Source of the DNA: an uncultured Planctomycetia bacterium
GTDB taxonomy: Bacteria; Omnitrophota; Gorgyraeia; 1-14-0-20-64-10
DNA: 63,145 nucleotides
NCBI GenBank assembly: GCA_964373715.1
Contig: CAYJVR010000007.1
Coordinates: 26,787-89,931, forward strand
Direction of reading: 5' to 3'
Part shown: in pieces, positions 892-45,859 of the stretch
Layout: each line of letters starts with the position of its first letter
Numbering within the stretch: the stretch's first letter is position 1
Notes under the pieces: model-generated
Databases searched by the model: none
What the model was told of the DNA's origin: nothing
The model's input: only the letters and a program-made list of their open reading frames with translations
Position numbers and translations under genes: made by a program

Positions 892-1548
892 ATGATTGCA
901 ATAATCGATTATGGGATGGGGAACCTCGCCTCCGTTGAGAAAGCGGTTAAATTTCTCGGCGGCAAGGTGCGGGTGACCTCTGACCCGAGAAAGATCACGC
1001 GTGCTTCGGGGATCATTCTGCCCGGCGTGGGCGCCTTCGGCGCGGCTATGCGTGAGATGAAGAAGCGCCGCCTCATCGGGCCGGTTTCCGCCGCCGCGCG
1101 GGAGGGCAAACCTTTCCTTGGCCTCTGCCTCGGCCTCCAGTTGTTGTTCGAGTCGAGTGAAGAGTCTCCCGGCGTGAAGGGTCTCGGCCTGCTCAAAGGG
1201 AAGGTCCGCCTGCTCCCCAAAAGGCCGGGGCTGAAGATTCCGCACATGGGGTGGAACAACATTAAACCAGTCGTGGAGCGGGGGGCGCGGGGCGGGGGAA
1301 ATCCAAACCGGCAGACACGCAATCCACTTTTAATCGGAATTCCGGACGGGGCGTTCGTCTATTTCGTTCACTCTTATTACGCCGATCCGAAAGAAAAATC
1401 GGTTGTCGCCGCGGTGACCGAATATGGTGTAAAGTTTCCGTCGGTTGTTTGGAACGGTGAGAAACTCTGGGCGACCCAGTTTCATCCGGAGAAGAGCCAG
1501 AAGGTTGGATTGAAAATCCTCGATAACTTCCTGAGGCAGGCGTGCTGA
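892..1548 (+). CDS. hisH: imidazole glycerol phosphate synthase, glutamine amidotransferase subunit
   Basis: Class I GATase motifs: ILPGVGAFG, LGLCLGLQLL, HMGWN, FHPEKS. Position is between hisB and hisA. Carries an extra Gly/Arg loop (VVERGARGGGNPNRQTRN). Confidence 0.9.
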   Translation: MIAIIDYGMGNLASVEKAVKFLGGKVRVTSDPRKITRASGIILPGVGAFGAAMREMKKRRLIGPVSAAAREGKPFLGLCLGLQLLFESSEESPGVKGLGLLKGKVRLLPKRPGLKIPHMGWNNIKPVVERGARGGGNPNRQTRNPLLIGIPDGAFVYFVHSYYADPKEKSVVAAVTEYGVKFPSVVWNGEKLWATQFHPEKSQKVGLKILDNFLRQAC

Positions 1549-2267
1549 TCGTTCCGGCCATCGACCTGCGGGGAGGCAAGGTGGTGCGCCTGCTCAAGGG
1601 GGATTTTTCCCAGGAGACTGTTTTCGGAGAAGATCCGCTTGATTTTGCGAGGCGTTGGGTTTCTCTCGGCGCGAAGCGCTTGCACCTGGTGGATCTGGAC
1701 GGGGCCAAGACCGGAGTTCCTCGCCACATGGAGATTGTTTCCCGGATCGCCCGGGAGGTTGTCATCCCGGTTGAGATCGGGGGAGGCATCCGGACGATGG
1801 CGGCGATCGACCGGTACCTCACTGCCGGCGTTGCCTATGTCATTTTGGGGACCAAGGCCTGCTTCGACGAAGAGTTCTTGACCGGCGCACTAAAAACCTA
1901 CGGCGAAAAGATTTCGGCCGGCGTGGATGTTAAGGATGGGAAGGTTGCCACCGAGGGATGGCTCGCGACCGCGGGTGGAGACCCGGCAGTCTTGGTGGAG
2001 CGGTTGGCCGGTCTCGGGGTGAAGACGATTATTTATACCGATGTGGCTCGGGACGGCGCGATGACCGGTCCCGCGGTCGAGACCTACAAGAAACTGCTCC
2101 CCTACACGAAAGGGAAATCGGCGCTGTTTGCTTCAGGCGGCGTCAGCTCGATGGAGGACCTGCTGAAGCTCAAAGAGCTGGAGAGGGATGGACTGACCGG
2201 CGCCATCGTGGGGCGCGCCCTCTACGAGGGGACACTCGACTTGAAAGAGGCGGTTGCCCGGTGCTAG
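1542..2267 (+). CDS. hisA: ProFAR isomerase (phosphoribosylformimino-5-aminoimidazole carboxamide ribotide isomerase)
   Basis: GTG start overlaps the hisH stop. Motifs [27 protein letters not shown] and IVGRALYEG. Confidence 0.9.
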
Positions 2268-3064
2268 CCAAAAGGATCATCCCCTGTCTCGATGTGAAAA
2301 ATGGCCGGGTCGTCAAAGGGACCCGGTTCGTAAACCTGAAGGACGCGGGGGACCCGGTCGAGGTGGCGCGGCGGTACGAGAAGGAAGGGGCTGATGAGAT
2401 GGTTTTCCTTGATATCACCGCCTCCCACGAGGGGCGGGACACGCGGGCCGATCTGGCCGCGCGCGTTGCCCGGGTGATTTTCATCCCGTTCACGGTTGGC
2501 GGCGGCATCAAGACGATCGGGGAGATCCGGAAAATTTTGCTGGCCGGCGCCGATAAGATTTCAGTCAACACCGCGGCGGTCAAGAACCCGAAGCTGATTA
2601 CCGAGGGTGCGAAGCGGTTCGGTTCCCAGTGCATCGTGGTAGCGATTGATGCCAAAAGAACAAGGGGCAGGAGACAGGGGGCACGGGGCAAAGGGCGAGG
2701 GGCGGGGGGCGGGGGAAAATGGGAGGTGTACCTGCATGGCGGACGGATCCCGACAGGTATCGACGCGGTGGCCTGGGCGAAGAGGGCGGTAAAGCTCGGC
2801 GCCGGGGAAATCCTGCTGACCTCGATGGATTGCGACGGCACGAGAAAGGGATACGACCTGGAACTCACCCGGTCGGTGGCGCAGGCGGTGCCGGTGCCGG
2901 TGATCGCCTCCGGCGGAGCGGGTAATTTACAGCATTTGGTTGCCGGTCTGACCAAGGGTATGGCTGATGCTGTCTTAGCCGCTTCGATTTTCCACTACAG
3001 GCAGTATACTGTTCCACAAGCCAAGCGCTACCTGAAGCGGCATGGCATTTCCGTGAGATTGTAA
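2261..3064 (+). CDS. hisF: imidazole glycerol phosphate synthase, cyclase subunit
   Basis: In-frame GTG at 2261 overlaps the hisA stop, so the listed ORF 1958..3064 is a 5' over-extension. Motifs [40 protein letters not shown] and ASGGAG. Carries a Gly/Arg insertion ([21 protein letters not shown]). Confidence 0.9.
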
Positions 3065-3074
3065 GAGGGGAACG

Positions 3075-3464
3075 ATGGCACATTCATGGATTAATGGGAT
3101 CAAGTTCGATTCGAATGGGCTGGTGCCCGCTATTATCGAGGATGCCGGCACGCATGAGGTTCTGATGGTGGCCTACATGAACAAGGAGGCGGTCGAGAAG
3201 ACCCTCTCCACGAAAAGGGCTCACTTTTATTCACGCTCCCGCCGGAAAATGTGGCTCAAAGGGGAGACCTCAGGCCATATCCAGAAGGTGAAGGGTCTGG
3301 CGATTGACTGCGACGGGGACGCGCTGTTGGTCAGCGTCGAGCAGGTGGGCGGGGCCTGCCATACCGGTTTTCGCACCTGTTTTTACCGGAAGCTCTCCGG
3401 CACAACTTGGAAAGAGACCGGCAAAAAACTATTTGATCCGGATAAGGTTTATGCCAAAAAATAG
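3075..3464 (+). CDS. hisI: phosphoribosyl-AMP cyclohydrolase (monofunctional, no HisE part)
   Basis: [44 protein letters not shown] and CHTGFRTCF. Only 129 aa. Confidence 0.85.
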
Positions 3465-4971: not shown

Positions 4972-4990
4972 TGAAAATGACGGAGGGACG

Positions 4991-5608
4991 ATGGGCGCAA
5001 CAATGCTGATTGCGGAGATCCTCATCAGTGGAATTCAGACCGGTGTGGCGATTTTGCTCTGGGCGATTGCCCTGCTGGGCTACGGAGTTCTTCATAAGCC
5101 GTTGTTCCTTTTCGACATGCACGGCGGTTCCTGGAGGTGGGTTCCTATTTTCGGGATCATCATGCTGGCCGTCTGCTACACGCTGGGGATACTGGTAGAC
5201 CGGGTCTCTATGTCGGTCTTTTTCTGGTTTGACCGGCTTGTTCTGCGCGCGGCTTGCCCGGAGAGGAGCAAGGTCCGGCAGATGGTCCGGCGGGCGATCG
5301 ATGAGGAAAAGGTGTTTGTCAGGATGCTCAGCGAAGAGAGCAAGCTCTCGGAGCACATGCAGGATTTCCGGTCCCGGCAGAGGATTGCCCGGGCGACGGT
5401 CTTTAATTTGATCCTGATCAGCGCGGCCTTCTGCTGGCCCGGTTCGCACTTGGAAGCTCTGCTGCCGAAGTCTCCCCGATCCCTTCTTTTTGTGCAGATA
5501 CTGGGAACAATTCTTATTGGCCTGGTCAGCCTGGCGTGGGTGATCCTCCACCTGACCTACGAAGAAAAATTAAAGCAGGTGCAGGAGATCCGTTCCGGCA
5601 GGAAGTAA
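4991..5608 (+). CDS. hypothetical integral membrane protein inserted between trpE and trpG
   Basis: ATG 4991 is preceded by ggaggga. Several hydrophobic helices ([67 protein letters not shown]). No family recognised. Confidence 0.55.
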
Positions 5609-5612
5609 AAAG

Positions 5613-6188: not shown

Positions 6189-6193
6189 CGTCC

Positions 6194-26893: not shown

Positions 26894-27091
26894 AGCAGTT
26901 TCAAGTTTAAGAGTTTATCAGTCCTGAGATTAAGATGTAAGATCGAATAGCAATAATCTTCCTGCCTGCCAATCCTGTTTAATCGTAAATAGATCTAGAT
27001 ATAGCTGCGTATTTTTATAGATTTCCAGCTATACTATAACTACAAACAAATATTCCCTGGATTTAAATTTGATTTTCGATTAACTAATCTC
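26894..27091 (+). promoter_or_regulatory. AT-rich non-coding leader/promoter region of giant ORF 1
   Basis: 198 bp of markedly AT-rich DNA in an otherwise GC-rich window. Contains tatact/tataac-type hexamers. No GGAGG-type SD before ATG 27092. Confidence 0.35.
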
Positions 27092-30000: not shown

Positions 30001-32941
30001 CACGCTTGTTAATGCATTTCGGGAAGCAGGTTGGACACCCGCATCAACGACCTATGTGAACTGGGTTGCGAGTGCCGTTGATTTGGCAGAGAGAATCGCG
30101 CCGGCTGTTCAGCTTCCCAATGGCCAGCCGTTCGAGAGCTGGGAAGCCCTCAAAGCTTATTTGAAAGCCAACAAGAGCCGATTGGAAGAACGGAATCACG
30201 AAGTTTTAGTGGCCGCGGGTCAGGTGAAACCGACCGATCCTGTCGGATCTCTTTCGTATCTAACCCTCGTCAGTGCTTTCCAAGAAGGAAGTTGGGCAGT
30301 CGGCGTTGATTATAGCTGGCAACGGAATGCAGGTGGGTTCGATCTCAGCGAGCGGCTCGCGGCGGTCGTTCAGCTTCCCAATGGGCAGCCATTTGGAAGC
30401 TGGAAAGATTTAAAAGAATATTTCACGGCCAATAAGGTTGTTTTGGAAAGGCGGAATCACGAAATGTTGGTTACTTCCGGCCAATCTAAACAGGAGGCCT
30501 CTCCTCGTTCGTTGGCCTATGGTTCTCTGCTGCTTGCATTTCGGGAAGCGGGTTGGACGGGTGAAGAAGTGAAAGGTTGGTTTTGGGATGCGGGCTCACT
30601 TGATTTAGCAGAACGATTGCGGCCTGCCATTCAGCTTCCAGGAGGACAACCGTTTCAGACATGGGAGAGCTTTAAAGCATACCTTTTGGCGCACAAAGCG
30701 GAATTAGAAGCCCACAACCAGAGAGTGTTAGCTGAATTCGATCCTTCGGAATTGCAAGAAGAGGTTTCGGGCAGGTTGTCTTTTGGAACTCTTGTGGGCG
30801 CCGCGATTGAGGCTGAGTTGGTTCTGGGTGACCAAAGCTGGCTTCGGGCGGCAGGAGCCCTTGATTTAAGCGAAAGGATCGCCACGGTCGTCCAGCTTCC
30901 GAGCGGGAAACCATTTAAAACGTGGGAAGATCTCAAGGATTATCTTGTCGCGCATAAACAGGAGTTGGATCGAAAGAACTGGGAAGCGCTGGTGGATTTG
31001 GGACAAATCAAGTCGATCAATCCGATCCAGCCCATTTCGTACGCCACTCTTTATCAAGCTTTTCGAGAAGCAGGGTGGGCGATTCAAGTCAGCCAAGATT
31101 GGTTGCGCGCATCCGCCGGGTTAGATTTAAGCCAGCGGTTGGCGCCGATTGTTCATCTTCCCGATGGACAGCCCTTTAGAACGTGGGGAGATTTAAAGGT
31201 TTATCTTAAACCCCTCAAATTTGCGTTGGAGCAACGGAATCGAGAGGCATTGATCGGGTCCGGCCAGATGAAAACAGACAGCCCCAATCAGGCGCTTTCT
31301 TATGCGACGCTTTTCCAGGCGTTCCGAGAAGCCGGATGGGCAGTGGACGTAGACCAGGGCTGGTTGAGAGATTCCAGCTCGTTGGACTTGGCCGACCGCC
31401 TTTCTCCGTTGGTATTGCAAGACGAAGATCAAGTTCCTTTTTCGACCTGGCCGGAACTCAAGGCCTATCTGATAGCCAAAAAAGCCGATTTGGAACGGCA
31501 AAATACGCAAGCTTTACAAACGTTTGAAGAACCGAACGAAACGACGGTTGCAGGCCGGCTGGCGTACGCGACGCTTGTTGCTGCGTTCCAAGAGATTGGA
31601 TGGACGGCGAGAGTGGATGTCAACTGGAACCGGGCCGCGGGGGCATTGGATTTAAACGAGAGGATCGAAGGTTTTCTCGCGCTCCATCCGTTGCCGGAAC
31701 AGCCGGATTGGCCCGATGTTCGTCAATGGTATCTTGAGAACAGAGAAGGGTTGGCGCAGGCCAACTGGCAAGCTTTGAATCCAGAGACACCCCGTCCGGC
31801 CGATTACTATTTAGCTCCTGCCACAATAGGTTTTGCTCTTGTCGAAGCCGGCCATTTGCCTGAGACTTTGCGAAACGGAATCCATGAAAACGGTATTGAA
31901 TTGAACTATGCTTTGAACCATCAGAGAACATTAATCAGTCAATTGGGAGCTGCTCTTGACCAGCTGAATCCTGTAAATTTTCCAGTTGGACAAGAAAAGG
32001 AATTCGTTACGGCCGTAAAGAATTGGATGCATCCGGAGCTGCTTCTTAAAGTGACAAGTGAGGTTGAACAACAGGACGTCAACAGCCTCGCCGCTGCTTT
32101 CCAGGCGGGGAATCAAACTCCAGCCGGTGCCGCACGGGTGGCCGGGTTGACTGCGGCAAGGGCTCGAAAGCTATGGGGGTATGTCACCGGTGCGAAAACA
32201 TTTGTTCCTGTAACTTACGCAAACAACAGAGCTTTCCCGAAGCTCGTTACAGAATTAGTGGCCGTTCCTTACGCTCAGCCGGTGATAGCCGAGTGGCGAA
32301 GTGGCTTGGAAGAGACCCGAATTTCTGTGCTGGAGCGGAGCGCCATCTCTCGTTTGACGGCAGAACGGGGAATTTTTGAATGGGCGCGATCGTGGGCAGA
32401 GGTTGTCCGTTCCTTGGGAGGCGAACTTTACGATGGAATCATCAACGTCACGAATCCTGATCAACCTGCTTTGTCGAAATCATTCGATTTAACTCGTTCG
32501 TTAGAGGCGGATGGTCATGCTTTAGTTGTTCCAACGCTACCGGCTCAGGAGATAAAGCTCGTTCAGTCAGCCACTTTGTGGGTGCAAAAGGGGGTCCTCG
32601 TGCCTGCTGCGTGGAGGGAGTTTTTCCAAATCAGGGAATTGGCCGCTGAAGAGCCTGAACAAGCCGGGGAAGCTTTGAGGGAAGCCCGAGTAGGGGACGT
32701 TGTTCTGTTGAACGATGAATTCGTTACGGAAACCACTCAAGAAAACTGGGTAAATATCCTGAATGAGCGGGAACTTCTCGGGCTTCGCGTTCCGGCAGGG
32801 ATGAATTTGGAAACATACTCTGAGAAGGATTTGGCCACGCTGCTCATCGTTCTCGAGCGTTCCGGCATCCATTTTTATGATCTTTCCTCTCTTCATGCCG
32901 CCGATATCGAAGGCCAGCGGCAGTTACTCCTCTATCTGTAA
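27092..32941 (+). CDS. giant protein 1 (1949 aa): degenerate PPP/metallophosphoesterase-like head, 12-13 tandem ~87-aa repeats, unknown C-terminal region
   Basis: Single uninterrupted ORF. Head motifs are ITDLHGD, LGGDYVDGG, GGNIDR (in place of GNHE), FVHAAP and LRGHD. The repeat array is described separately. Three [A/S]GLEE motifs at 27296, 28442 and 32300. Confidence 0.85.
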   Translation: MKIKPIVARVIERGIRGGTLLVFLTSYSVSEPYLLGRDTLRPEPIREATGSGLKELRERISEDTVAFRAGLEEGSSLQDLIRNAETLLGDPAQEAVTPEKAQLLEQLIPWVEKKLREQEKVGLLRPTLQLIESAQSFKAGNTVFLPFEAADAVFITDLHGDRISFQQILTQVSYDPEANKKALRKKYLILGGDYVDGGPRSLDVLLKTLTLYLQDSKHVVLMGGNIDRYRLKTVEQDKYRFFLQLKERLGTNGEALYKKWQEFARQFLVADVITKNGFAFVHAAPPTDKVQGYDLERGLEWLSFSDEAKHEMATNSLRRPGLPNLSDGSDQENEQYSRDLQRDYEGHPSSRVTGIESIRKFGELTGASVILRGHDSGSPHDKALVVPVEGGKKITVLTVHASVIGSPESEKVYPKTPRCYAVVKLDHNYTTIDPTSTDPTEQIVYPVLPDAGLEESDEGPPPSAFWPEEHFERLSQRIAPYVTQTATVPFTSWDELKAYLKLHKAELEQRNHEALIASGQIKSTDPVTRFAYQTFVNAFSEGGWATGVGQNWQRAAGALDLSERIAPVIQFPNGQAFPTWEEVGNYLRDHKADLEQRNHEVLVVSGKKKATGLATPVSYQTFMQAFYEAGWVIETERQWMYGGAFDLADRIASAIQLPDGKPFENWNALREYLRANKTVFERKNYEAQVVSGQIDPQEQKTPTLLAYTTLVSAFQGGGWASLSQVLRRSAGALDLAQRLSPVVKLPDNKPFSTWEEVKAYFMADKSILEKQNREVLLATSPLKPKDRSVLLAYSTLLEAFREGGWVEIPEEEYIRWKRSSSSLSLGERLAPIVQLPDGQPFSNWEDLRSYLKAHKADLERRNYEVLSASGQVEAEDAPGPLSYTTLAYAFGEAGLFKGSDEAYWAAGALELSERLAPIVQLPNGQPIATWEDLKAYLKANKAKLERQNHEILVASGKVKPGVPVHPLSYNTLVNAFREAGWTPASTTYVNWVASAVDLAERIAPAVQLPNGQPFESWEALKAYLKANKSRLEERNHEVLVAAGQVKPTDPVGSLSYLTLVSAFQEGSWAVGVDYSWQRNAGGFDLSERLAAVVQLPNGQPFGSWKDLKEYFTANKVVLERRNHEMLVTSGQSKQEASPRSLAYGSLLLAFREAGWTGEEVKGWFWDAGSLDLAERLRPAIQLPGGQPFQTWESFKAYLLAHKAELEAHNQRVLAEFDPSELQEEVSGRLSFGTLVGAAIEAELVLGDQSWLRAAGALDLSERIATVVQLPSGKPFKTWEDLKDYLVAHKQELDRKNWEALVDLGQIKSINPIQPISYATLYQAFREAGWAIQVSQDWLRASAGLDLSQRLAPIVHLPDGQPFRTWGDLKVYLKPLKFALEQRNREALIGSGQMKTDSPNQALSYATLFQAFREAGWAVDVDQGWLRDSSSLDLADRLSPLVLQDEDQVPFSTWPELKAYLIAKKADLERQNTQALQTFEEPNETTVAGRLAYATLVAAFQEIGWTARVDVNWNRAAGALDLNERIEGFLALHPLPEQPDWPDVRQWYLENREGLAQANWQALNPETPRPADYYLAPATIGFALVEAGHLPETLRNGIHENGIELNYALNHQRTLISQLGAALDQLNPVNFPVGQEKEFVTAVKNWMHPELLLKVTSEVEQQDVNSLAAAFQAGNQTPAGAARVAGLTAARARKLWGYVTGAKTFVPVTYANNRAFPKLVTELVAVPYAQPVIAEWRSGLEETRISVLERSAISRLTAERGIFEWARSWAEVVRSLGGELYDGIINVTNPDQPALSKSFDLTRSLEADGHALVVPTLPAQEIKLVQSATLWVQKGVLVPAAWREFFQIRELAAEEPEQAGEALREARVGDVVLLNDEFVTETTQENWVNILNERELLGLRVPAGMNLETYSEKDLATLLIVLERSGIHFYDLSSLHAADIEGQRQLLLYL
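28495..31890 (+). repeat. in-frame tandem array, 12 units of about 262 bp plus a degenerate 13th
   Basis: Unit consensus: ALDLSERIAPVVQLPNGQPF.TWEDLKAYLKANKA.LERRNHEVLVASGQVKP.DP...LSY.TLV.AF.EAGWA......W.RAAG. Unit starts near 28495, 28763, 29021, 29285 and on to 31378, with the degenerate unit from 31643. Confidence 0.9.
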
Positions 32942-33169
32942 ATCCCTTTTATGAAGCGTTCCCATTACCATACCCGCAATGACGGTATACAAACGGTCTT
33001 GATGCCACTATTTCCCGGTTCCTGTTCTTGTTTTTCCCTCCTTGTTTTGCTAGACTAGCCTGTTGTTCTGCCGGTTAGTCTCGGTAAACGTTTCTTTTGA
33101 GACAGCAACAACTTAGGGGAAATCTACCCTCTTTTTTTTCGAACGGAGGGTTAAAGAAGGATTGCCCAG

Positions 33170-33916
33170 ATGAGCCTGATGAGGACTGCAAACCCAGCGC
33201 TGAACGCGGACACCTTTGTCGGGTCTGCCGGGGTTTCGGAAACAGAGACGATGACCCTGCAGGGGGCGGTCAATAAGACCGGGATTCTCCTCGGCATATT
33301 GGTCCTCGCCAGTTCTTGGACCTGGAACCAAGCCCACATTGACGTGCCGGGGGTTCTCCGATGGACCTTAATCTGTGCGATTGCCGGTTTCGTGGTTGGG
33401 CTTGTCACGGTCTTCAAGAAATCGTGGTCCCCCGTCACTGCGCCGGTCTACGCGCTGCTGGAAGGCTTGGTGCTGGGGGGGATATCCGCTTTCTTTGAGC
33501 GTCAGTATCCCGGCATCGTAATTCAGGCGGTGGCGCTCACCTTCGGGACGCTGGCCGCCCTGCTGGCCGCTTACACCTCCCGGATTATCTCGGTCACGCA
33601 GAACTTCAAACTTGGTGTGGTGGCGGCGACCGGCGGCATCGCGATCCTGTACCTGATCAATATGGGGATGATGTTCTTCGGTCGGAGCATCCCGATGATC
33701 CATGAGAGCGGGCCTTTGGGGATCGGGTTCAGCGTTTTCGTGGTGATCATCGCGGCGCTGAACCTCGTGCTCGACTTCGACTTTATTGAAAACGGATCCA
33801 AAACCAACCAGCCGAAGTACATGGAGTGGTACGCCGGTTTCGGGCTGATCGTGACGCTGGTCTGGCTGTATTTGGAGATCCTCCGGCTGCTGGCAAAAAC
33901 CCGCCGCCGCCGGTAA
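33170..33916 (+). CDS. Bax inhibitor-1/YccA-like membrane protein (COG4760-type)
   Basis: N-terminus MRTANPALNADTF....MTLQGAVNKTGILLGIL followed by about seven TM helices, an architecture typical of this family. Confidence 0.6.
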   Translation: MSLMRTANPALNADTFVGSAGVSETETMTLQGAVNKTGILLGILVLASSWTWNQAHIDVPGVLRWTLICAIAGFVVGLVTVFKKSWSPVTAPVYALLEGLVLGGISAFFERQYPGIVIQAVALTFGTLAALLAAYTSRIISVTQNFKLGVVAATGGIAILYLINMGMMFFGRSIPMIHESGPLGIGFSVFVVIIAALNLVLDFDFIENGSKTNQPKYMEWYAGFGLIVTLVWLYLEILRLLAKTRRRR

Positions 33917-33995
33917 TCAATTGTTTGGAAAATAGAATTCTTCTCTGTAAGAGGAAAAGTTTTGAAGGGAACCCTTCCTCTCGAGAGTGGGGGTT

Positions 33996-34088
33996 TTGGG
34001 GAGAGTGTTGAACTCTCCCCAAAGAGTCCATTAGTTTTTGCTGGAGATGGGAATATTAAGGGAAGAACCGAGATATGGTTCTTCCCTT
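33996..34088. other. two perfect hairpins (10-bp and 12-bp stems)
   Basis: ttggggagag-tgttgaa-ctctccccaa (33996..34022) and aagggaagaacc-gagatat-ggttcttccctt (34058..34088). Neither has a T-run, so they are not canonical terminators. They sit just left of the tRNA-Pro half-copy. Confidence 0.7.
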
Positions 34089-34191
34089 AAAACGAGATCC
34101 GACGCTTGAGCGTCAGCCGCTGCCACAGTTTGTTTGCGGAAAGCGTTAGAAAGTCGTGAGCTCGTTTATTTGCAAAAGGCAGGAACTCGTT

Positions 34192-34232
34192 CGGGGCGTG
34201 GCTCAGCTTGGCTAGAGCGCTTGCATGGGGTG
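34192..34232 (+). repeat. 41-nt exact duplicate of the 5' half of tRNA-Pro(GGG) (att-like direct repeat)
   Basis: cggggcgtggctcagcttggctagagcgcttgcatggggtg is identical to 36131..36171. Identity ends at the 3' edge of the anticodon loop. Confidence 0.9.
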
Positions 34233-34360
34233 TTTAGTACTGTTTTTGAAACGCATTCATACATAATGAGATACAGGTTGACTGGTCGCCATAAGGTCGC
34301 CATTGTATACAGTCAATCGAGGGCTGACCGTTACACTTAACGCAGGAAGGAGTTGTCTAG

Positions 34361-34663
34361 GTGAGCGCGAGGATTGCGATTGATCGGGAGAAGATAGCGG
34401 ATTTCTGCCGGCGGCATCACATTCGACGGCTGGCGCTCTTCGGCTCTGTTCTGCGCGATGATTTCCGGCCTGATAGTGACGTGGATGTCCTCGTCGAATT
34501 CGAGCCGGGTGCTACCGTTGGATTTCTCCGGTTAGCCGCAATGGAACTCGAACTGTCGGGCATTCTTGGTCGAAAGGGAGATCTAAGAACACCTGCGGAG
34601 TTGAGCCGGTATTTCCGAGATGAAGTACTGAAGGAAGCCGAGGTCCAGTATGTCGCGGCGTAA
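34361..34663 (+). CDS. nucleotidyltransferase-domain antitoxin (MNT/MntA-like)
   Basis: GTG start after aggaaggag. LALFGSVLRDDFRPDSDVDVLVEF is the GS..R...D.D minimal nucleotidyltransferase signature. Overlaps the downstream HEPN gene by 14 nt. Confidence 0.8.
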   Translation: MSARIAIDREKIADFCRRHHIRRLALFGSVLRDDFRPDSDVDVLVEFEPGATVGFLRLAAMELELSGILGRKGDLRTPAELSRYFRDEVLKEAEVQYVAA

Positions 34664-34985
34664 CGATGCTAACTTCCTACGCGATATGATTGATGCCGCT
34701 AAGGAGGCTCTCTCTTTCGCCCAGGGCAAGAAACGCAGCGACTTAGATGAGGACCGGAAGCTTGTGCTCTCCATCGTTCACTTGGTCGAGATTATCGGCG
34801 AGGCCGCGGACCATGTGAGCAGAGAGTTTCAGGAAGCCCATCCAGAGATCCCTTGGCCGGTCATCATCGGTATGCGGAACCGTTTGGCCCACGCCTACTT
34901 TGAGGTAGATCTGGACCGGGTTTGGGATACCGTGAAGGACGATCTTCTTCCTTTGATCTCTCAGTTGGAAGGGATTGTTAAATGA
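34650..34985 (+). CDS. HEPN/DUF86 (HepT-like) toxin
   Basis: IGMRNRLAHAYFEVD contains the Rx4-6H HEPN motif. Size about 110 aa. Paired with the upstream MNT gene. Confidence 0.8.
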   Translation: MSRRNDANFLRDMIDAAKEALSFAQGKKRSDLDEDRKLVLSIVHLVEIIGEAADHVSREFQEAHPEIPWPVIIGMRNRLAHAYFEVDLDRVWDTVKDDLLPLISQLEGIVK

Positions 34986-35467
34986 CCCGGCGCTTTCGCA
35001 ACCCGACACCTGCAAGCCGTCAATGCGATCGGGTGTTGAAACGGTTTCTTTCGGTTTGCCTTGCCTTCCTTATGTTCTTGGTTGCAGCGAATTGTTTTGC
35101 AGTTGAGGTAGCTGTCGAATGGCAAAGGAATGACGGCGTTTTTGATGGATTCATAGGAAAGCTGGAAATTGACATACAAAGCAAAGCTATGGCAGCTTCC
35201 GTCTTTGCAAAATCGGCCCATGGAGGTGTACAGGTTTACTCGCACCATTTTGAGATACTTGAAATTCAAGAGACGCTGGAAGGGCATTATCGCATTGGTT
35301 GCAGGAATGAAATGGGAGCGATGTTTTCGGGCCACGTCGATTTGAGTGATTCAGCCAAACCCGCAGTGAAGTTGTACGGACCCAACAACGTAGTCATCAC
35401 GAACATTTCTCGGGGTGGTAAGTGGTTCAAATTCTGGAATATTCGAAACGTATATTTGGGTCGATAG
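34982..35467 (+). CDS. hypothetical secreted protein
   Basis: ORF has an N-terminal hydrophobic signal-like segment FLSVCLAFLMFLVAANCFAVEV. Start overlaps the HEPN stop (aaATGAcc). No family recognised. Confidence 0.45.
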   Translation: MTRRFRNPTPASRQCDRVLKRFLSVCLAFLMFLVAANCFAVEVAVEWQRNDGVFDGFIGKLEIDIQSKAMAASVFAKSAHGGVQVYSHHFEILEIQETLEGHYRIGCRNEMGAMFSGHVDLSDSAKPAVKLYGPNNVVITNISRGGKWFKFWNIRNVYLGR

Positions 35468-35555
35468 ATTCAAGTGAACTTGTTGAGTAGGTACGTACCT
35501 TGTAACGGCCTTGGGAAGCAGACTCATTTGTAACGAAAGAGATGGGAGTTAGAGC

Positions 35556-35912
35556 ATGCTGAATATAACTTTAATAGGTCTCATTATCTTAGGGGTAATC
35601 TCTGCCACTCTGCTTGCATGCTTGCACTTGAGGTTATTCTCATTTGATGCGTTGGCCTCTTCTTCTGTTGCAGAGTTTATAAGTAGAAGCTTTCTGCATT
35701 GTCTCGTTATGGCTGGAGCCATTGCTTTGGCTGTCTTTGTTTTGTTGCAGCTAAGGGATAGGGAGATACCTCGTGGAACTCATGCTGGCGAAGGAGCGGG
35801 AGGCGCTATTAACAGGCGGTTTATTACTCCTGAGTTCTTTCGGAACTTAGTAGCGGCACTTATTGCGGCGGGTTATTTGGGTCTCGTCGTTATGTTTCTG
35901 AACAGAGTTTAA
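35556..35912 (+). CDS. hypothetical membrane protein
   Basis: Three or four hydrophobic helices. Preceded by gggagttagagc. No family recognised. Confidence 0.45.
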   Translation: MLNITLIGLIILGVISATLLACLHLRLFSFDALASSSVAEFISRSFLHCLVMAGAIALAVFVLLQLRDREIPRGTHAGEGAGGAINRRFITPEFFRNLVAALIAAGYLGLVVMFLNRV

Positions 35913-36130
35913 TCAGCGGTAATGCCATAGAGTGGGAACACGATTGGTCTGACTGCCCGCTGGAGGTGGTTGAGTTGATATCAGCCATTCAGACTCTCGA
36001 TAGGTAGCCGGGATCGGTAACTATAAGGTCCCCATTTTGTGATGCTAGGCAACGCTTGGACAAGTTGGATTTAGCGGGGCAGTGTCGGAGTTCTCGTCGG
36101 TGGATGGATTTTCACAAGTCGTTGTGTTGA

Positions 36131-36390: not shown

Positions 36391-37698
36391 ATGGCGGCTA
36401 TCGAAAAAATAAACATAGGATTGATCGGGTGCGGCACCGTCGGGTCCGGCGTGGCGAAGATGCTCCTGGACCGGAAGGAATTCCTTGCCCGCAGGGCCGG
36501 CGTGCAGCTGGTTTTAAAAAAGGTGGCCGTTCGCCACCGGAACAAAGCCCGGCTGCTGAGGCTTGATCCCCGGCTGGTGACCACCGATCCGATGTCGGTG
36601 GTGGAGGACCCGGAGATAGACCTCGTCGTCGAGCTGATCGGCGGCATCCACCCGGCCAAGGAGCTGGTCTTGAAGGCGATCCAGAACCGCAAACCGGTCG
36701 TGACCGCGAACAAGGCCCTACTCTCGCATGAGGGGACAGCGGTCTTCGGCGCGGCCGTCAAGGCGGGCATAGACCTTTATTTCGAGGCGAGCGTAGCCGG
36801 CGGGATACCGATCATCAAGTCTCTGCGGGAAGGCCTGATCGGCAACGACCTGGAGGTCCTCTACGGGATACTGAACGGGACCACCAATTTTATTTTGTCC
36901 GAGATGGCCCGCGGGGAGGGCCGTTCGTTCAGGGCCGCGCTCGAAGAGGCGCAGGAGCGCGGCTACGCGGAACGGAACCCGTCGCTGGACCTGAAAGGGG
37001 TTGATACCGCGCATAAGCTTTCTATCCTGACGCTGCTTGGTTTCGGGCGGATGATCCGGCCCGAGGATATCTACGTCGAGGGGATTCAGGACATCACCGC
37101 CAACGACGTCCGGTACGCGCATGATGTCGGCTATACGATCAAGCTCCTCGGCATCGCCAAAAGGGAGGGAGACCAACTGGAGGTGCGCGTGCACCCCACG
37201 CTGCTTCCGAACAACCATCTGCTTTCCAGCGTCAACGGCGTTTATAACGCTGTTTTTGTCGAAGGGGATTTGATCGGCGACCTGGTCCTGTACGGCCAAG
37301 GGGCGGGCCGCTTTCCGACCGCGAGCGCGGTCCTTTCCGACATTGTGGACGTGGCCCGGAACATCCGCTACAGCTCCCAACAAAGGGTTCCGCTGCCTCT
37401 GCCGACCTCGAGGATCCGGCGGGTGCGCCGCGTCGGGGAGATCGAGGGGCGCTACTATTTCCGGTTTTCCTGCATTGACAGGCCCGGCGTTCTGGCCAGG
37501 ATCGCCCGGGTGCTGGGCGCCCACCGGATTTCTATCGCCAGCGTGCTTCAGAAGGACCGCCGGCGGGAGCACATCGTTCCGGTGGTGATGCTGACCCATG
37601 ACGCAAAGGAAAGAAATGTTCAGGACGCCTTGTCTGAAATTGACAGGCTTTCATTGATCCGCCGTAAAACGGTTTGCATCCGGGTGGAGAGAGGATGA
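36391..37698 (+). CDS. hom: homoserine dehydrogenase
   Basis: [38 protein letters not shown] and a C-terminal ACT domain. Confidence 0.92.
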
Positions 37699-38855
37699 AA
37701 ACGGGGCGTGGGGCAGGGGGCGTAGACGAGGGGCGAGGGGCGAGGGGCGAGGGGAAAGCGAAAAAATCTTTCCGACCCGTGTCTCCTGCCCCTTGTCCCC
37801 CGTCTTGGCCCGGTGTCGTCCGACGGTACGCGGAGTTCCTGCCGGTGGGTCCGCAGACGCCGGTGGTCACCCTTTTGGAAGGGAATACCCCGCTGATCCC
37901 CTCCCGGGTTTTAAGCAGACGGTTGGGGAGGGATGTTCAGCTTTATTTCAAATACGAGGGGTTGAACCCTACAGGTTCTTTCAAAGACCGGGGAATGACG
38001 ATGGCGATGTCGAAGGCGAGTGAGCAGGGGTTCAAGACGGTGATCTGCGCCTCGACAGGGAACACCTCCGCCTCCGCGGCCGCTTACGCGGCGCAGGCCG
38101 GTTTGAAGTGCGTTGTCCTGATCCCGAAGGGGGCCATAGCGCTGGGCAAGCTGGCGCAGGCGCTGATCCACGGGGCGAAAGTTCTGGCGGTCAGCGGTTC
38201 TTTTGACGAGGCGCTTGAGATCGTCCGCCACGTGAGCCAGGATTATCCGATCGCTTTGGTCAACTCGGTCAACCCTTACCGGATCGAGGGGCAGAAAACC
38301 GGCGCCTTCGAAATCTGCGATGTTCTCGGGCGGCCGCCGGATTACCACGCGATCCCGGTCGGCAACGCTGGCAACATCACGGCTTATTGGAAAGGGTACA
38401 ACGAGTATTTCAAAGTAGGCAGGGTCAACACCTTTCCTAAAATGATCGGCTTTCAGGCGGCGGGGGCCGCGCCGATCGTTAAAGGACAGGTGATCAAGGA
38501 CCCGGAGACGATCGCCACGGCGATCAAGATCGGGAATCCGGCCAGCTGGGAAGGGGCGGTCGCGGCGCGCGACGCCTCCGGCGGCCTGATCGGCTCGGTC
38601 ACCGACAAGGAGATCCTGGCGGCCTACCAGCTTCTGGCCGAGGAGGAGGGGATTTTTGCGGAGCCGGCGAGTGTTGCTCCCATTGCCGGAATTTTGAAGC
38701 TGGGGAAGAAAGGGTACTTCCGGAAAGGCAGCACGGTGGTCAGCGTTCTGACCGGCCACGGTCTGAAGGACCCGGAACGGGCTGTTCAGACGGTGCGCCC
38801 GCCTAAGGTTGTTCCTCCGAAGATCGGCGCGATCCTGGATGAGATCGGATTCTGA
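37695..38855 (+). CDS. thrC: threonine synthase with a Gly/Arg-rich N-terminal extension
   Basis: ATG 37695 overlaps the hom stop (gg ATG A) and follows ggagagagg. The conserved core starts at [32 protein letters not shown] (PLP lysine). An alternative in-frame GTG at 37779 cannot be excluded. Confidence 0.85.
37703..37754 (+). other. G-quadruplex-type G-tract cluster (seven G4-5 runs) on the sense strand at the start of thrC
   Basis: ggggcgtggggcagggggcgtagacgaggggcgaggggcgaggggcgagggg. The last four runs (37730..37754) are GGGG separated by cga loops. Confidence 0.75.
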
Positions 38856-40133: not shown

Positions 40134-40150
40134 ATTTCCGGGTACTTGAG

Positions 40151-41461: not shown

Positions 41462-41467
41462 GGTCCG

Positions 41468-43045
41468 ATGAAAAAAGAAGTTTTTCTTTACGACACGACA
41501 ATGCGGGACGGGGCGCAGACAGAAGGGATTTCTCTGTCTGTCGAGGATAAACTGCGGATAACGGTTAAACTCGATGACCTGGGCGTCCCGTACATCGAAG
41601 GAGGGTGGCCGGTCGCCAGCCCCAAGGAGATGGAGTTCTTCCACCGGGTGAAGAAGGAACTGAAGCTCAAACATGCCGTCTTGACCTCTTTCGGTTCCAC
41701 GCGCAAGGCAGATACTCCGGTCAGCAAGGATTCCCAGGTGGCCTCGCTTCTGGAATCCGGCACCAAGGTGGTGACGATCTTCGGCAAGAGCTGGGACCTG
41801 CACGTGAAAGAGGTTTTCCGCGTGCCGCTGGAAGAGAATCTCAGGATGATTGCCGATACGGTCGCCTACCTCAAGAAGCACGGGGTAGAGGTGATGTACG
41901 ATGCGGAGCATTTCTTTGACGGGTTCCGGGCCAACCCGGATTACGCACTGAAAACTCTGGAAGTGGCCGCGGAGAGCGGGGCGGGGACGATCATCCTCTG
42001 CGACACCAACGGCGGGTCTCTGCCGAGCTTTGTCCACAAGGTGGTGGATGAAGTGAAGCGGCGTGTCTCCGTTCCTCTGGGGATCCACAGCCACAACGAT
42101 TCCGAGCTGGCGGTGGCCAATGCGCTGGCGGCGGTCGAGGCCGGTGTTGCCCAAGTGCAAGGGTGCATCAACGGCTACGGCGAGCGGTGCGGCAATGCGA
42201 ACCTCTCCTCGCTGATCCCGATCCTTCAGCTGAAGATGGGGTATTCGGGCATTCCCGTTGACAGGATGAAGACTCTCACCGAGACCTCCCATTATGTGGC
42301 TGAGGTCTGCAACATGAGGCCGGACGACCATCAGCCGTTTGTGGGGAACTCCGCGTTCGCCCACAAGGGGGGCGTGCACATCAACGCGGTGATGAAGAAT
42401 TCCGCGACGTACGAACATATCGAGCCGGCCGCGGTCGGGAACCGGCAGAGGATTCTCGTGTCGGAGCTTGGGGGCAAGGCGACGATCCAGGAGAGCGCCA
42501 AGGTCTTCAAATTCGAGATGGATCCAGACCAGACGAAAGAGTTTTACAAGTCGGTGCAGGCCAAAGAGGCCGCCGGCTTCCAGTACGAGATGGCGCCCGG
42601 TTCCTACGAGGTGCTGATGCGCCGAGCTTATAAGAAATACAAAGCCTTCTTTACCCTGGAGAGATTCAGCGTGCTGGTCGAGAAGTCCCCCGATGGGGCG
42701 CTGACCTCGCAGGCGACGATCAAGGTCAAGGTGGACGGCACCTCCGAACATACCGTGGCGGAAGGGGATGGCCCGGTGAATGCACTGGATAAAGCGGTGC
42801 GCAAAGCTCTGTCGGAGTTCTATCCGGCGCTGGCGAAAATGCACCTTGTAGATTTCAAAGTCAGGGTGTTGGAGAGCCAGGCCGGCACTGCCGCGCGGGT
42901 GCGTGTGCTGATCCAATCGCAGGATGAGAAAGACAGCTGGTGGACGATGGGGGTCAGCGAAAACATCATCGAAGCCAGCTGGCAGGCTTTGGTGGATTCG
43001 ATCGAGTACAAGCTTTTAAAAGACCGAAATAGTCGTGGGTCTTGA
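41468..43045 (+). CDS. cimA: citramalate synthase / 2-isopropylmalate synthase family (CimA-like)
   Basis: LYDTTMRDGAQTEGISLSVEDKL, HSHNDSELAVANALAAV, GERCGNA and a LeuA-type C-terminal regulatory domain. The 525-aa length fits the citramalate synthase clade, but substrate assignment is inference. Confidence 0.65.
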   Translation: MKKEVFLYDTTMRDGAQTEGISLSVEDKLRITVKLDDLGVPYIEGGWPVASPKEMEFFHRVKKELKLKHAVLTSFGSTRKADTPVSKDSQVASLLESGTKVVTIFGKSWDLHVKEVFRVPLEENLRMIADTVAYLKKHGVEVMYDAEHFFDGFRANPDYALKTLEVAAESGAGTIILCDTNGGSLPSFVHKVVDEVKRRVSVPLGIHSHNDSELAVANALAAVEAGVAQVQGCINGYGERCGNANLSSLIPILQLKMGYSGIPVDRMKTLTETSHYVAEVCNMRPDDHQPFVGNSAFAHKGGVHINAVMKNSATYEHIEPAAVGNRQRILVSELGGKATIQESAKVFKFEMDPDQTKEFYKSVQAKEAAGFQYEMAPGSYEVLMRRAYKKYKAFFTLERFSVLVEKSPDGALTSQATIKVKVDGTSEHTVAEGDGPVNALDKAVRKALSEFYPALAKMHLVDFKVRVLESQAGTAARVRVLIQSQDEKDSWWTMGVSENIIEASWQALVDSIEYKLLKDRNSRGS

Positions 43046-43100
43046 GTCGTGGGTCTTGAGTAAAATCAGGTTTCAAGACTCACCCCTCACGGCTCACGAC
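43031..43100 (+). other. 14-bp tandem duplication plus a long imperfect hairpin spanning the cimA stop
   Basis: agtcgtgggtcttg occurs twice (43031..43058). The right arm tcaagactcacccctcacggctcacgac (43073..43100) pairs with it, allowing G-U pairs. Loop is agtaaaatcaggtt. Confidence 0.6.
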
Positions 43101-43117
43101 AATGTTACTGGTTGGTC

Positions 43118-45859
43118 ATGACTCGTCCATCCGTTTATTCTCCTTCTGAATCGGAAAACCGCTGGTACCCCGAGTGGGAAGAGAAGGGGTATTTCCGTCC
43201 CGATCTCAACGCTCCTCAAGGGCCCTTCACGATCGTGATCCCTCCGCCCAACGTGACCGGGATCCTCCACATGGGGCATGCGCTGAACAACACCCTCCAG
43301 GACATTCTCATCCGCTGGAAAAGGATGCAGGGGTACTCCACTCTCTGGGTGCCCGGCACCGATCATGCCGGCATCGCGACACAGAACGTGGTCGAGCGCC
43401 AGCTCGCGAAGGATCACCTGACGCGCCACCAACTGGGCCGCGAAGCGTTCGTTAAAAAGGTGTGGGACTGGCGGCAGCAGTACGGTTCGACGATCGTGCG
43501 CCAGCTCAGGCGTCTCGGCTCCTCCTGCGATTGGTCGCGCGAGCGGTTCACGATGGACGAAGGGCTCTCTAAAGCGGTCCAGACCGCGTTCCTGGAGCTC
43601 CACAGCGCCGGCCTTATTTACCGGGGCTATTACCTCGTTAACTGGTGCCCCCGCTGCCAGACGGCGCTCTCCGATGAAGAGGTTTTGCACGAAGAGATCA
43701 AAAGCCATTTCTGGCACATCCGTTACCCGGAAGCGGGGCAAGGGACGGGGGGCGGAGGGCAGGGGGTGGTGGTGGCCACGACGCGGCCCGAGACGCTTCT
43801 CGGCGATGTGGCGGTGGCTGTGCACCCGGAGGACGGGCGGTACCGCTCTCTGGCGGGCAAGACGCTTCAGCTTCCGATTGTCGGCCGCCCCGTCAAGGTG
43901 ATCCAGGATTCCAGCGTGGACAGGGAGTTCGGCACCGGCGCGGTCAAAGTGACTCCGGCGCACGATCCGGCCGATTTCCTGCTCGGGCAGAAGCACGGCC
44001 TCGAGGCGATCCGCGTCATGCAGCCGGACGGCCGGATGAACGAACAGGCAGGCCCCTATGCCGGTATGGACCGGTTTGAGTGCCGCAAGAAGATCGTCGC
44101 CGATCTGGAATCGGCGGGCCTTCTCATCAAGGTGGAAGACCATACCGCCTCGGTCGGCCACTGCTACCGATGCAAGACGGTGATTGAGCCGACTCTCTCT
44201 CCCCAGTGGTTTGTGAAAATGGGACCGCTGGCGAAACTCGGAATCGAAGCGGTGGAGAAGGACGGGATGAGGTTTTACCCGGAGAGATGGACCAAGTTTT
44301 ATCTCGATTGGCTCCGTAACATACGGGACTGGTGCATCTCGCGCCAGATTTGGTGGGGGCACCGGATCCCCGCCTGGTACTGTAAAAAGTGCTATCCGGC
44401 CTACACCGAAAAACAGCAGAGGGGCACCCTCTCAGGCACTCTCGTGATGAACGAGGAGAAGGCCGGTATCTACGTGGGCCACAGTTGCCCGAAAAGCTGC
44501 CGCGCCTGCGGCGGAACCGAATTCGTCCAGGATGAAGATGTGCTCGACACATGGTTCTCCTCCTGGCTGTGGCCCTTCTCGACGCTCGGTTGGCCGGAGA
44601 AGACGAAGGACCTTGCCGCTTTCTACCCCACCTCTGTTCTCGTGACCGCGCAGGACATCATCTTTTTCTGGGTCGCCCGGATGGTGATGGCCGGCAAATT
44701 TTTCCTCAATAAGATCCCGTTTAAAGACGTTTATATCCACGGGATCATCCGGGTGGAAGGGGGCAAAAAGATGTCGAAATCCCTCGGCAATAGCATTGAC
44801 CCCCTCGAGGTCATTGACAAAATGGGCACGGATGCTCTGCGCTTCAGCATCGCCCACATGGCCTCCGAGGGGCAGGATCTGTATCTGTCGGACGCCAAAT
44901 TTCTTTTGGGCCGGAATTTCGCCAATAAGCTCTGGAACGCGGCCCGGCTGATCCTCGATAAGGCGGGGGATGATCTGGAGCGTCCGATACCGTTCAATCC
45001 CCGGTTTCTTACGGTCCCGGACCGGTGGATCTTAAGCCGTCTCCAACGGACGGTGGATTTGGTGACGGACGCTCTCGGGGAATACAAGTTCAACGAAGCA
45101 GCCAGGCTGCTCTACGGCTTTGTCTGGCATGAATTTTGCGACTGGTATCTGGAGATCGCAAAGCTCCAGAGAGAAAGCGGGGACTCAGCACAGGCCAGCG
45201 ACACGGATGAAGTCCTGCTGACGGTGCTGGAGACGGTCTTAAGGCTGCTCCACCCGTTCATGCCGTTTATCACCGAAGAGTTGTGGCACCGGATGGGGCA
45301 GGTGACGCCGGCGAATTCAACGATCATGAAAGCCCCCTGGCCGAAACCCGAAACCGCCTGGCTCGATCCGGCGGCCGAGGAGGCTTTCGGCAGGCTCGAG
45401 GCGGTGATTACAGAGGCGAGGAACATCCGCGCCACCTTCCGGGTGCCGGTCAAACAGCAGGTGAGCCTTTTTATCCGGGGACGGAAAGGGACGGAACTGC
45501 TGTCGCGTCATGAAGCGGTCATTAAACGGCTCGCGTCGGTCGGTGACATGGCTGTGGATCAGAAGACGGCACGCCCGCAGGGCTCTGTGGCGGCCCATCT
45601 GCCGGAGTCGGCGGATTTCGACGCCTGGGACCTGATCGTTCCGCTCGCGGGCCTTGTGGACCTGAACGTCGAGAGGCAGCGGATCGAAAAAGAGATGGAG
45701 GGGATACAGTCCCGGGCCGAGGCGAAGAAGGCGCGTCTTAACGACGGGGTGTTCCGTTCCAATGCTCCGGCCGAGGTGGTGGAGGAGATGGAAAATTCGC
45801 TCAAGGAACTGGAGTCGGAATTAGTCAAATGGACCGAAAGCCTGAAACAGCTTCAATGA
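43118..45859 (+). CDS. valS: valine--tRNA ligase
   Basis: PPPNVTGILHMGHAL (HIGH), KMSKSLGN (KMSKS), CP1 editing region and a C-terminal coiled coil. Confidence 0.95.
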   Translation: MTRPSVYSPSESENRWYPEWEEKGYFRPDLNAPQGPFTIVIPPPNVTGILHMGHALNNTLQDILIRWKRMQGYSTLWVPGTDHAGIATQNVVERQLAKDHLTRHQLGREAFVKKVWDWRQQYGSTIVRQLRRLGSSCDWSRERFTMDEGLSKAVQTAFLELHSAGLIYRGYYLVNWCPRCQTALSDEEVLHEEIKSHFWHIRYPEAGQGTGGGGQGVVVATTRPETLLGDVAVAVHPEDGRYRSLAGKTLQLPIVGRPVKVIQDSSVDREFGTGAVKVTPAHDPADFLLGQKHGLEAIRVMQPDGRMNEQAGPYAGMDRFECRKKIVADLESAGLLIKVEDHTASVGHCYRCKTVIEPTLSPQWFVKMGPLAKLGIEAVEKDGMRFYPERWTKFYLDWLRNIRDWCISRQIWWGHRIPAWYCKKCYPAYTEKQQRGTLSGTLVMNEEKAGIYVGHSCPKSCRACGGTEFVQDEDVLDTWFSSWLWPFSTLGWPEKTKDLAAFYPTSVLVTAQDIIFFWVARMVMAGKFFLNKIPFKDVYIHGIIRVEGGKKMSKSLGNSIDPLEVIDKMGTDALRFSIAHMASEGQDLYLSDAKFLLGRNFANKLWNAARLILDKAGDDLERPIPFNPRFLTVPDRWILSRLQRTVDLVTDALGEYKFNEAARLLYGFVWHEFCDWYLEIAKLQRESGDSAQASDTDEVLLTVLETVLRLLHPFMPFITEELWHRMGQVTPANSTIMKAPWPKPETAWLDPAAEEAFGRLEAVITEARNIRATFRVPVKQQVSLFIRGRKGTELLSRHEAVIKRLASVGDMAVDQKTARPQGSVAAHLPESADFDAWDLIVPLAGLVDLNVERQRIEKEMEGIQSRAEAKKARLNDGVFRSNAPAEVVEEMENSLKELESELVKWTESLKQLQ

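Follow-up and report, generated by a model that had tools for sequence, protein, structure and literature searches.

Dispersed arrays of G-rich 7-nt modules probably underlie in-frame segments in conserved enzymes of an Omnitrophota genome

Results

Host Genes and Arrays in the Window

The window analyzed here is a stretch of 63,145 nt (C7:26787-89931) from the 1.96-Mb assembly of an uncultured bacterium of the Omnitrophota, labelled G000 among the compared genomes, and it includes four genes for conserved enzymes, hisH, hisF, thrC, and valS, that each carry a G-rich segment in frame. An earlier reading of the sequence alone had described these segments as G-tract mini-insertions; all four are present where that reading placed them, with two end coordinates that overshoot. 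A listing of all G-clusters in the whole genome indicates, however, that the unit is not a plain G-tract but a 7-nt module, GGGGCNN, accompanied by a characteristic variant, GGGAGACA/GGAGACA, and that the complete form is a hairpin with a C-rich arm. The four segments are probably copies of one genome-specific, dispersed repeat family composed of these modules.

The hisH gene, encoding a glutamine amidotransferase subunit (Pfam GATase, residues 4-216), lies at 892..1548 on the plus strand and was aligned with 13 relatives. Its loop insert occupies 1270..1322 (+), with the array proper at 1280-1298 (GGGGGGCGCGGGGCGGGGG), and the string gcggggggcgcggggcggggg at 1278-1298 is translated as ERGARGGGN, as had been claimed. 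Compared with the 86% relative L049, hisH has 39 additional nt (13 codons) in the loop after HMGWN, which holds from 0 to 25 extra residues across relatives, and AAATCCAAACCGGCAGACACGC, 3' of the array, is likewise missing in the nearest relative. With only three G-runs, the hisH array gives no predicted quadruplex under the quadruplex option of ViennaRNA, whose calls here and below are energy-model predictions. Two more hisH-like/hisF-like gene pairs adjoin each other at C1:324513-327332, off the histidine operon, and are 43-52% identical to the copies in the window.

The hisF gene (2261..3064, +), encoding the cyclase subunit, has a GTG start that overlaps the hisA stop, and its product of 267 amino acids (P0242) matches HisF chains of the PDB with E=2e-102. 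The G-arm array at 2660..2719 (+) is composed of the units ACAA GGGGCAG GAGACA GGGGGCAC GGGGCAA AGGGCGA GGGGCGG GGGGCGG GGGAAAA; the start proposed earlier, 2660, is correct, but the proposed end at 2724 is not, because the 56-nt string quoted for the segment ends 9 nt earlier at 2715. In alignments with 18 relatives the insert falls between AIDAKR and WEV, where several genomes of the same family have 3-4 residues and where solved HisF structures show a 16-residue gap; the difference from the 86%-identical L049 is again 39 nt, or 13 codons. The length of the insert is graded among the relatives, from 0 through +6/7 to +13/14 residues; the loop reads SGKGK or VPGKRGR in those that are 82-85% identical and VRGTGRGARGKGK, a shorter array, in the 90-92% relative P0243 (which, like the PyrK relative P0003, was compared at the protein level). 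The last step of growth, GRGAGGG, corresponds to 7 residues or 21 nt, exactly three heptamers, and 21 nt is the smallest whole number of heptamers that keeps the frame. Taken together, the aligned sequences show an array that has grown stepwise in place.

An AlphaFold2 model of HisF (mean predicted local distance difference test score (pLDDT) 82.6; predicted template modeling score (pTM) 0.84) places insert residues 133-152 between two strands without secondary structure, with pLDDT <50 for residues 136-149, in agreement with the surface loop that had been proposed. The insert starts three residues past Asp130, a position that in Thermotoga HisF is occupied by one of two catalytic aspartates. 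The hisF array has 7 G-runs, and a quadruplex is predicted for it (−38 versus −9.9 kcal/mol). In the alignment with orthologues that had been suggested as a check, relatives of 82-86% identity have neither the hisF nor the hisH segment.

The ATG of thrC (37695..38855, +) overlaps the hom stop (ATGA), an overlap conserved in G011, G005, and GCA_023248015.1. Its start is orthologous to that of G011 (MTVNSWPGV), and here 31 extra codons stand between MKT and SWPGV. These include a G-arm at 37703..37757 (+; GGGGCGT GGGGCAG GGGGCGTAGACGA (GGGGCGA)x3 GGGGAAA), to which Tandem Repeats Finder (TRF) assigns period 7, 4.0 copies, and a 100% match, an A-rich loop or spacer at 37758..37778 (+; GCGAAAAAATCTTTCCGACCC), and a C-arm at 37779..37808 (+; GTGTCTCCTGCCCCTTGTCCCCCG...), which is read as VSPAPCPP. 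The G-tract previously located at 37703-37754 is thus real. The two arms pair, the fold of 37690-37815 having an energy of −63.5 kcal/mol as compared with −48.0±3.6 for shuffles, and a quadruplex is also predicted from 3+4 G-runs. The 96%-identical genome GCA_023248015.1 keeps the element with ∼20 substitutions in ∼105 nt and two 6-nt indels, both frame-preserving, and the DNA flanking the element is visibly better conserved than the element itself.

In valS (43112..45859, +), of which a fragment was aligned with 13 relatives, an array of period 7 at 43735..43766 (+) reads GGGGCAA GGGACGG GGGGCGG AGGGCAG GGGG. The segment starts at 43733, as was proposed, but the 37-nt string quoted for it ends at 43769 and not at 43775. 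In the nearest relatives this loop already has the sequence GGG-D/E-G, and with four to five period-7 units the net gain over them is only 5 residues. The case of valS is therefore a weak one, although the array has 5 G-runs and a predicted quadruplex. A 14-nt tandem repeat, AGTCGTGGGTCTTG (x2.2, 100% match), is found at 43031-43061 in the short spacer that separates valS (start, 43112) from the preceding gene (end, 43045).

Other expectations of the sequence-only reading held to differing extents. The peptide GARG and the ending GGGG(G)AAA do recur in hisH, hisF, and thrC. Placement in surface loops of HisH and HisF and at the N terminus of ThrC agrees with lineage-specific in-frame additions, whereas the 5 residues of ValS were added to a natively Gly-rich loop. 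The G-quadruplex prediction that had been suggested as a check is positive in the energy model for hisF, valS, and thrC but not for hisH with its three G-runs.

Hairpin Form and the Exact 17-mer

In its complete form the element is a hairpin in which 2-7 modules make up a G-rich arm, followed by a short A-rich loop and then by a C-rich arm complementary to the first. Of the four copies, that in thrC is complete, and those in hisF, hisH, and valS are solitary G-arms, for which folding energies equal those of shuffled sequence, so that no hairpin is indicated at these three sites. In the genome as a whole there are five pairs of G-arm and C-arm ≤250 nt apart (thrC, lnt, pyrK, a carbohydrate-binding-module (CBM) protein, and C15 at 31.3 kb), as against ∼0.15 expected by our own estimate for ∼35 arms distributed randomly over 1.95 Mb. 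In pyrK and lnt, the stretch that separates the two arms is native coding sequence. The same build, with a G-arm ending in ...GGGGCGGGAGACAGGGGGC..., a loop of 8-12 nt, and a C-arm of CCCCGCG/CCCCACG units, is found in other Omnitrophota genomes.

A 17-mer, ACAAGGGGCAGGAGACA, occurs exactly at 2660-2676 (+) in hisF and, inverted, at 37780-37796 (−) in the C-arm of thrC, as had been pointed out, and these are its only exact copies in the 1.96-Mb genome. It is composed of three modules, (GGG)ACAA-GGGGCAG-GAGACA, and 21 further sites lie within 3 mismatches of it, many of them flanked by more G-heptamers. Its presence in two unrelated genes is explained by a shared vocabulary of modules and not by one transposed block. 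The suggestion of a common, possibly mobile origin is therefore upheld insofar as a common origin at the DNA level, rather than independent drift, is concerned, but not for the 17-mer as the unit of transposition, and mobility itself may only be surmised. The search of the genome that had been recommended finds G-clusters to be plentiful, whereas the 17-mer recurs elsewhere only in inexact form.

The Repeat Family in the Genome

The family, ∼30 arrays on 13 contigs (31 in the curated set), is built from the modules GGGGCGA, GGGGCAC, GGGGCGG, GGGGCAT, GGGGCAA, GGGGCAG, and GGGGCGT. The pattern GGGGCNNGGGGCNNGGGG has 31 matches in the genome as compared with 1 for a reversed control, and a looser scan for clusters of G-runs gives 50 clusters as against 9-16 in third-order Markov genomes; two false members from that scan, C5 66279 (GxxGYRD) and C4 26951, resemble native protein sequence and were excluded. 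The arrays are modular, range from 17 to 105 nt, vary in length, and often comprise one arm alone; 7 is the modal unit length among them and the period given by TRF at hisH, hisF, and thrC. Pairs of adjacent modules common to different loci number 27, versus 8.8 in unit shuffles (P=0.001). The triplet AAA is found ≤12 nt downstream of 15 of 30 arrays (16 if the AAAA tail of hisF itself is counted), the background frequency being 0.14.

Twenty-eight of the 31 arrays are in or at open reading frames, and three are clearly between genes. Thirteen are within proteins that have Pfam support to either side of the array, namely hisH, hisF, valS, uvrC, ribD, pyrK (two), lnt (two), waaA, and Rhs (three). 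Another 11 are at N termini (the two arms of thrC, nuoEF, a lolD-like ABC ATPase, tmk, cobA-hemD, a JAB protein, a PDZ protein, the CBM protein (two), and tyrA), and four are in C-terminal tails (dnaK, a penicillin-binding protein, an amino-acid permease, and yggS). With the G strand as the sense strand, 17 arrays encode Gly/Arg/Ala peptides such as GARG, and with the C strand as sense 11 encode Pro/Ala/Arg-rich peptides such as PAPRP or SPAPCP. Because the same DNA is read as Pro/Ala in the opposite orientation, the conserved entity is the DNA and the Gly/Arg peptide is an incidental by-product. The orientation of the G-arm shows no strand bias of its own when compared with the local GC skew (18 of 31) and merely follows the orientation of genes. 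The T content of the G strand is 2.4%, which leaves the element nearly free of stops in all six frames: there are 6 stops in 1,093 nt of arrays, compared with ∼54 (minimum 36) in random segments of the genome. This near absence of stops would be the simplest reason for the persistence of arrays in genes when their net length is divisible by three. At the identical site of PyrK, a relative of 83% identity has a G-rich insert that is different.

Distribution among Relatives

In 38 of 40 relatives the GGGGCNN vocabulary of this genome gives 0-2 matches. By contrast, G034, which belongs to another family of the same class, has 33 matches (control 8), with in-frame copies, often full hairpins, in lysS, valS, pheT, nadC, carB, lnt, and a pilin, and further copies at the 5' ends of proC and tyrA. 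G000 and G034 have words of 19-29 nt in common, GGGGGCGGGAGACAGGGGG among them. A 24-nt word, GGGGCNNGGGGCGGGAGACAGGGG, has 12 matches among 185,579 species genomes, of which three genomes with the label Omnitrophota or Omnitrophica account for 7, two metagenome-assembled genomes labelled “Planctomycetales” for 2 (one on contig CAYJTP010000017.1, L194), and a Chloroflexi, a Cyclobacteriaceae, and a short “Aquabacterium” contig for one each. The “Aquabacterium” contig (1.6 kb; NZ_JBASTH010000041.1, L196) has the same in-frame hairpin in an apparent pheT as G034 and may be mis-binned. An assembly artefact was considered as the source of the arrays and rejected because related arrays are present in independent assemblies; the exact HisF protein is recorded from 6 contigs.

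Other genera have repeat DNA of unrelated heptamer or hairpin type at the same places. The HisF loop holds hairpins with GGGTGTA/ACCCTAC arms in G019 and G017, CTATCCG arrays in G008, CCGGTTAG arrays in G028, and palindromes in G021, G012, and G018, and the HisH loop holds GGTTCAT/CCACGAA arms in G004, AGACAGA arrays in G008, and mini-hairpins in G001. The thrC of G005 has an unrelated in-frame insert of ∼45 codons between its ATG(A) start and WPGV (L022 1380-1530), which contains a perfect hairpin, CGGAGGGGGAAACC...GGTTTCCCCCTCCG, and the ValS loop is longer by 13 to 15 residues in G006 and G008. The ACCCTAC family of G019 is dispersed in its genome (39 matches versus 0 for the control), with many of the matches on very short contigs or near contig starts, and is absent from the congener G011. 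Comparison of these sequences shows vocabularies that are genome-specific, one of them being shared patchily between lineages.

Other Repeats and Composition

Outside the window there is a second, commoner modular family with 8-nt units, GTTAGCGG / AACCGGCA, often as inverted arrays and near contig ends (C10:63-72 kb, C1:989-2400, C5, and C4). A third, small family comprises inverted pairs of GGGAGAGGGTAGGGTGAGGG-type sequence that form tight hairpins (C3:81257/81280, C3:104984/105012, C4:78317/78344, and C9:41220/41246). Within the window, the region ∼26000-36000 has a GC content of 0.49-0.53, compared with 0.58-0.60 elsewhere, and may be foreign or differently constrained.

Discussion

The reading of the four segments as copies of a dispersed family implies that elements would be copied from one locus to another and, in rare cases, from genome to genome, and that selection would filter the copies to permissive sites. 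Those in permissive surface loops or at protein ends would stay in the genes and be read through as peptide, presumably in the form of disordered loops, with the restriction that in-frame changes must sum to multiples of 3 nt. The elements would then be selfish or neutral passengers and not adaptive features of the proteins. Alignments of close relatives show gains and losses of copies together with growth or shrinkage of arrays in place, and thus rapid turnover.

It should be recognized that several observations weigh against this reading. No word of three modules is common to more than one locus among the arrays, which means that there was no long master copy, and a model with such a master was rejected on these grounds. 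Comparison of hisF and hisH with the empty sites of L049 reveals neither a target-site duplication nor a clean empty-site boundary. The hisF, hisH, and valS arrays abut natively G-rich Gly/Lys/Arg codons and, given also the stepwise growth of hisF, growth in place fits as well as insertion. Among the N-terminal arrays other than thrC, some may be in 5' leaders and hence outside the protein. Finally, no mobilizing enzyme was found, the candidates considered being the Y1_Tnp genes of this genome and five relatives.

The same observations can be used to argue that there was growth in place only, with native G-rich Gly/Arg/Lys loop codons expanded by slippage, perhaps through stalling at quadruplexes or hairpins, with a vocabulary that reflects the mutational bias of the genome and with no copying between loci. 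The stepwise growth of HisF, ending in a step of three heptamers, is what such a process would give, as is the lack of three-unit words common to loci; the arrays abut native G-runs in hisH (GGGGGA), valS (GGG), and the DnaK tail, and the excess of heptamers in bacteria has been ascribed to polymerase slippage (PMC4692102). Slippage in place clearly contributes, but it leaves several features unexplained. Slippage of a G-array does not make an adjoining complementary C-arm, and inverted pairs are far in excess; the non-trivial word GGGAGACA and the build of G-arm, loop, and C-arm recur at unrelated loci and in distant genomes; and 38 of 40 relatives of similar GC content are without the vocabulary, whereas one genome of another family has it. 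As the sole explanation of the arrays, slippage is therefore considered unlikely.

The inverted pairing of arms is reminiscent of REPINs, the paired form of repetitive extragenic palindromic (REP) sequences, and raises the question of mobilization in trans by a RAYT-like HUH Y1 transposase that recognizes the hairpin in single-stranded DNA. One Y1_Tnp gene is present in the genome (C10:2453-3058), and within the family such genes are found in 8 of 8 genomes whose HisF insert has 12 residues or more but in only 1 of 5 without an insert, an association (Fisher ∼0.007) that we calculated post hoc and without phylogenetic correction; also, the congener pairs G019/G011 and G017/G002 differ jointly in repeat family and Y1_Tnp. 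However, class-wide, 8 of 14 genomes without the insert carry Y1_Tnp as well, and the flanks of the G000 gene are a different inverted 23-nt repeat, GGTACCGGGTTCYACGGGGACAC, with 8 copies in the genome, and not G-heptamers. None of the 6 Y1_Tnp genes in G019, G034, G017, G004, and G008 is flanked by heptamer arrays, and the link to RAYT was not supported on the evidence of the flanks in these five relatives and G000. The native coding sequence between the arms of pyrK and lnt is also a misfit to one transposing unit, and we regard mobilization of this type as highly improbable. The Y1_Tnp region itself (C10:2418-3082) comprises an open frame of 201 codons with the motifs HIHLLL and GRYHS between its inverted flanks, and three of the 8 copies of the flanking repeat adjoin Rhs-type genes on C20, C22, and C23.

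Adaptation at the level of the protein would suppose that Gly/Arg-rich (RGG-like) loops were selected for nucleic-acid binding, solubility, or assembly and that the DNA repeat merely encodes them. All six solitary arrays within housekeeping enzymes (hisH, hisF, valS, uvrC, ribD, and waaA) do read Gly/Arg, and the GARG peptide recurs, but the same DNA words read Pro/Ala in 11 arrays and some arrays are between genes. Moreover, close relatives have no inserts or different ones, unrelated peptides occupy these loops in other genera, and the HisF insert is predicted to be disordered, so that selection for the peptides has very little probability indeed.

If the arrays are copies of a dispersed repeat, as we favor, a more general proposal can be put forward, although it is a tentative one that we would not yet rate as likely: Omnitrophota, and perhaps other uncultured phyla, may host ultra-small modular hairpin elements whose arms are arrays of 7-nt modules, with vocabularies of each genome's own, occasional transfer between distant lineages, and recurring slots in essential genes. 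The slots would include the HisF loop by Asp130, the HisH loop, the post-start codons of ThrC, ValS, and the 5' ends of tyrA and proC, and the vocabulary of GGGGCNN and GGGAGACA is common to G000, G034, and a few other Omnitrophota. Such elements would imply an activity that copies repeats, or “writes” them, and that either tolerates coding DNA or is directed to it. No description of such repeats in Omnitrophota was found in the literature searched, which applies equally to the genome-own vocabularies, the reuse of the same loops across genera, and the patchy sharing of one vocabulary. Essential and highly conserved enzymes of a small-genome bacterium here tolerate repeat DNA that is presumably read as disordered loops, and the inserts constitute a natural map of permissive insertion sites. 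The presence of quadruplex-prone heptamers on the sense strand of housekeeping genes makes effects on translation testable in natural genes. It should also be noted that the inserts inflate protein lengths and can mislead annotation, binning, and structure prediction.

Comparison with Known Repeat Systems

With respect to miniature inverted-repeat transposable elements, inverted arms are present, the filled and empty sites of hisF and hisH show no duplication, and the apparent “core” at pyrK is native coding sequence. Their resemblance to REP sequences and REPINs lies in the short, GC-rich inverted pairs that form hairpins and in the RAYT-like gene of the genome; in contrast, a different repeat flanks that gene, each arm is a modular tandem array and not one fixed palindrome, and the arms lie at variable distances, which can take in native coding sequence. 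Heptamer repeats of cyanobacteria, designated STRR, were reportedly described by Mazel and co-workers in 1990, and Mrazek and co-workers are said to have found, in 2007, an excess of heptamers among the long simple sequence repeats of prokaryotes. Like the present family, these are reportedly tandem heptanucleotide arrays with lineage-specific units dispersed round the chromosome. To our knowledge, however, repeats of the STRR type are intergenic tandem arrays without hairpin pairing or systematic in-frame residence in enzyme loops.

The Rickettsia palindromic elements (RPE; Ogata et al. 2000) are, in the account by Delihas (2011; PMC3184786), ∼105-146 nt in length and of conserved sequence, and are described there as dispersed, hairpin-forming repeats fused in frame within genes, those for housekeeping functions included, and at their 5' and 3' ends. 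The family described here is likewise dispersed and multi-copy and resides in frame within genes without disrupting them. A stable hairpin is indicated by the thrC element (−63.5 versus −48.0±3.6 kcal/mol), whereas the hisF, hisH, and valS copies are equal to shuffles in this respect. The elements differ from RPE in being 20-105 nt long and composed of 7-nt modules, in their varying length, and in that many consist of one arm only, and they have no sequence relation to RPE, are in another phylum, and have a vocabulary that varies by genome. Identity with RPE was rejected on account of the mismatches in size, modular build, and sequence and the lack of a long shared block.

G-rich heptamers have been characterized in Xanthomonas (GGGAATC) and Nostoc (GGGGA(C/T)T), where they form quadruplexes in vitro (Rehm et al. 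2015, PMC4692102). These also are dispersed, tandem 7-nt units with G-tracts that vary in length and sequence between close relatives, with typically ∼four units in an array (PMC4692102). Quadruplex formation, which calls for four or more consecutive G-tracts, is predicted in the present family for hisF, valS, and thrC but not for hisH. They are under-represented within coding sequence, 89-93% of those in Xanthomonas and 68% of those in Nostoc being intergenic (PMC4692102), whereas in the present genome 3 of 31 arrays are intergenic and 13 are inside proteins; in addition, the unit here is GGGGCNN and has a complementary C-arm partner. The Xanthomonas and Nostoc G-heptamers are the closest known system in structure, and RPE are the closest analogue in function. 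On the basis of these likenesses, the element may be viewed as a variant that combines in-frame repeats resembling RPE with G-rich heptamer repeats.

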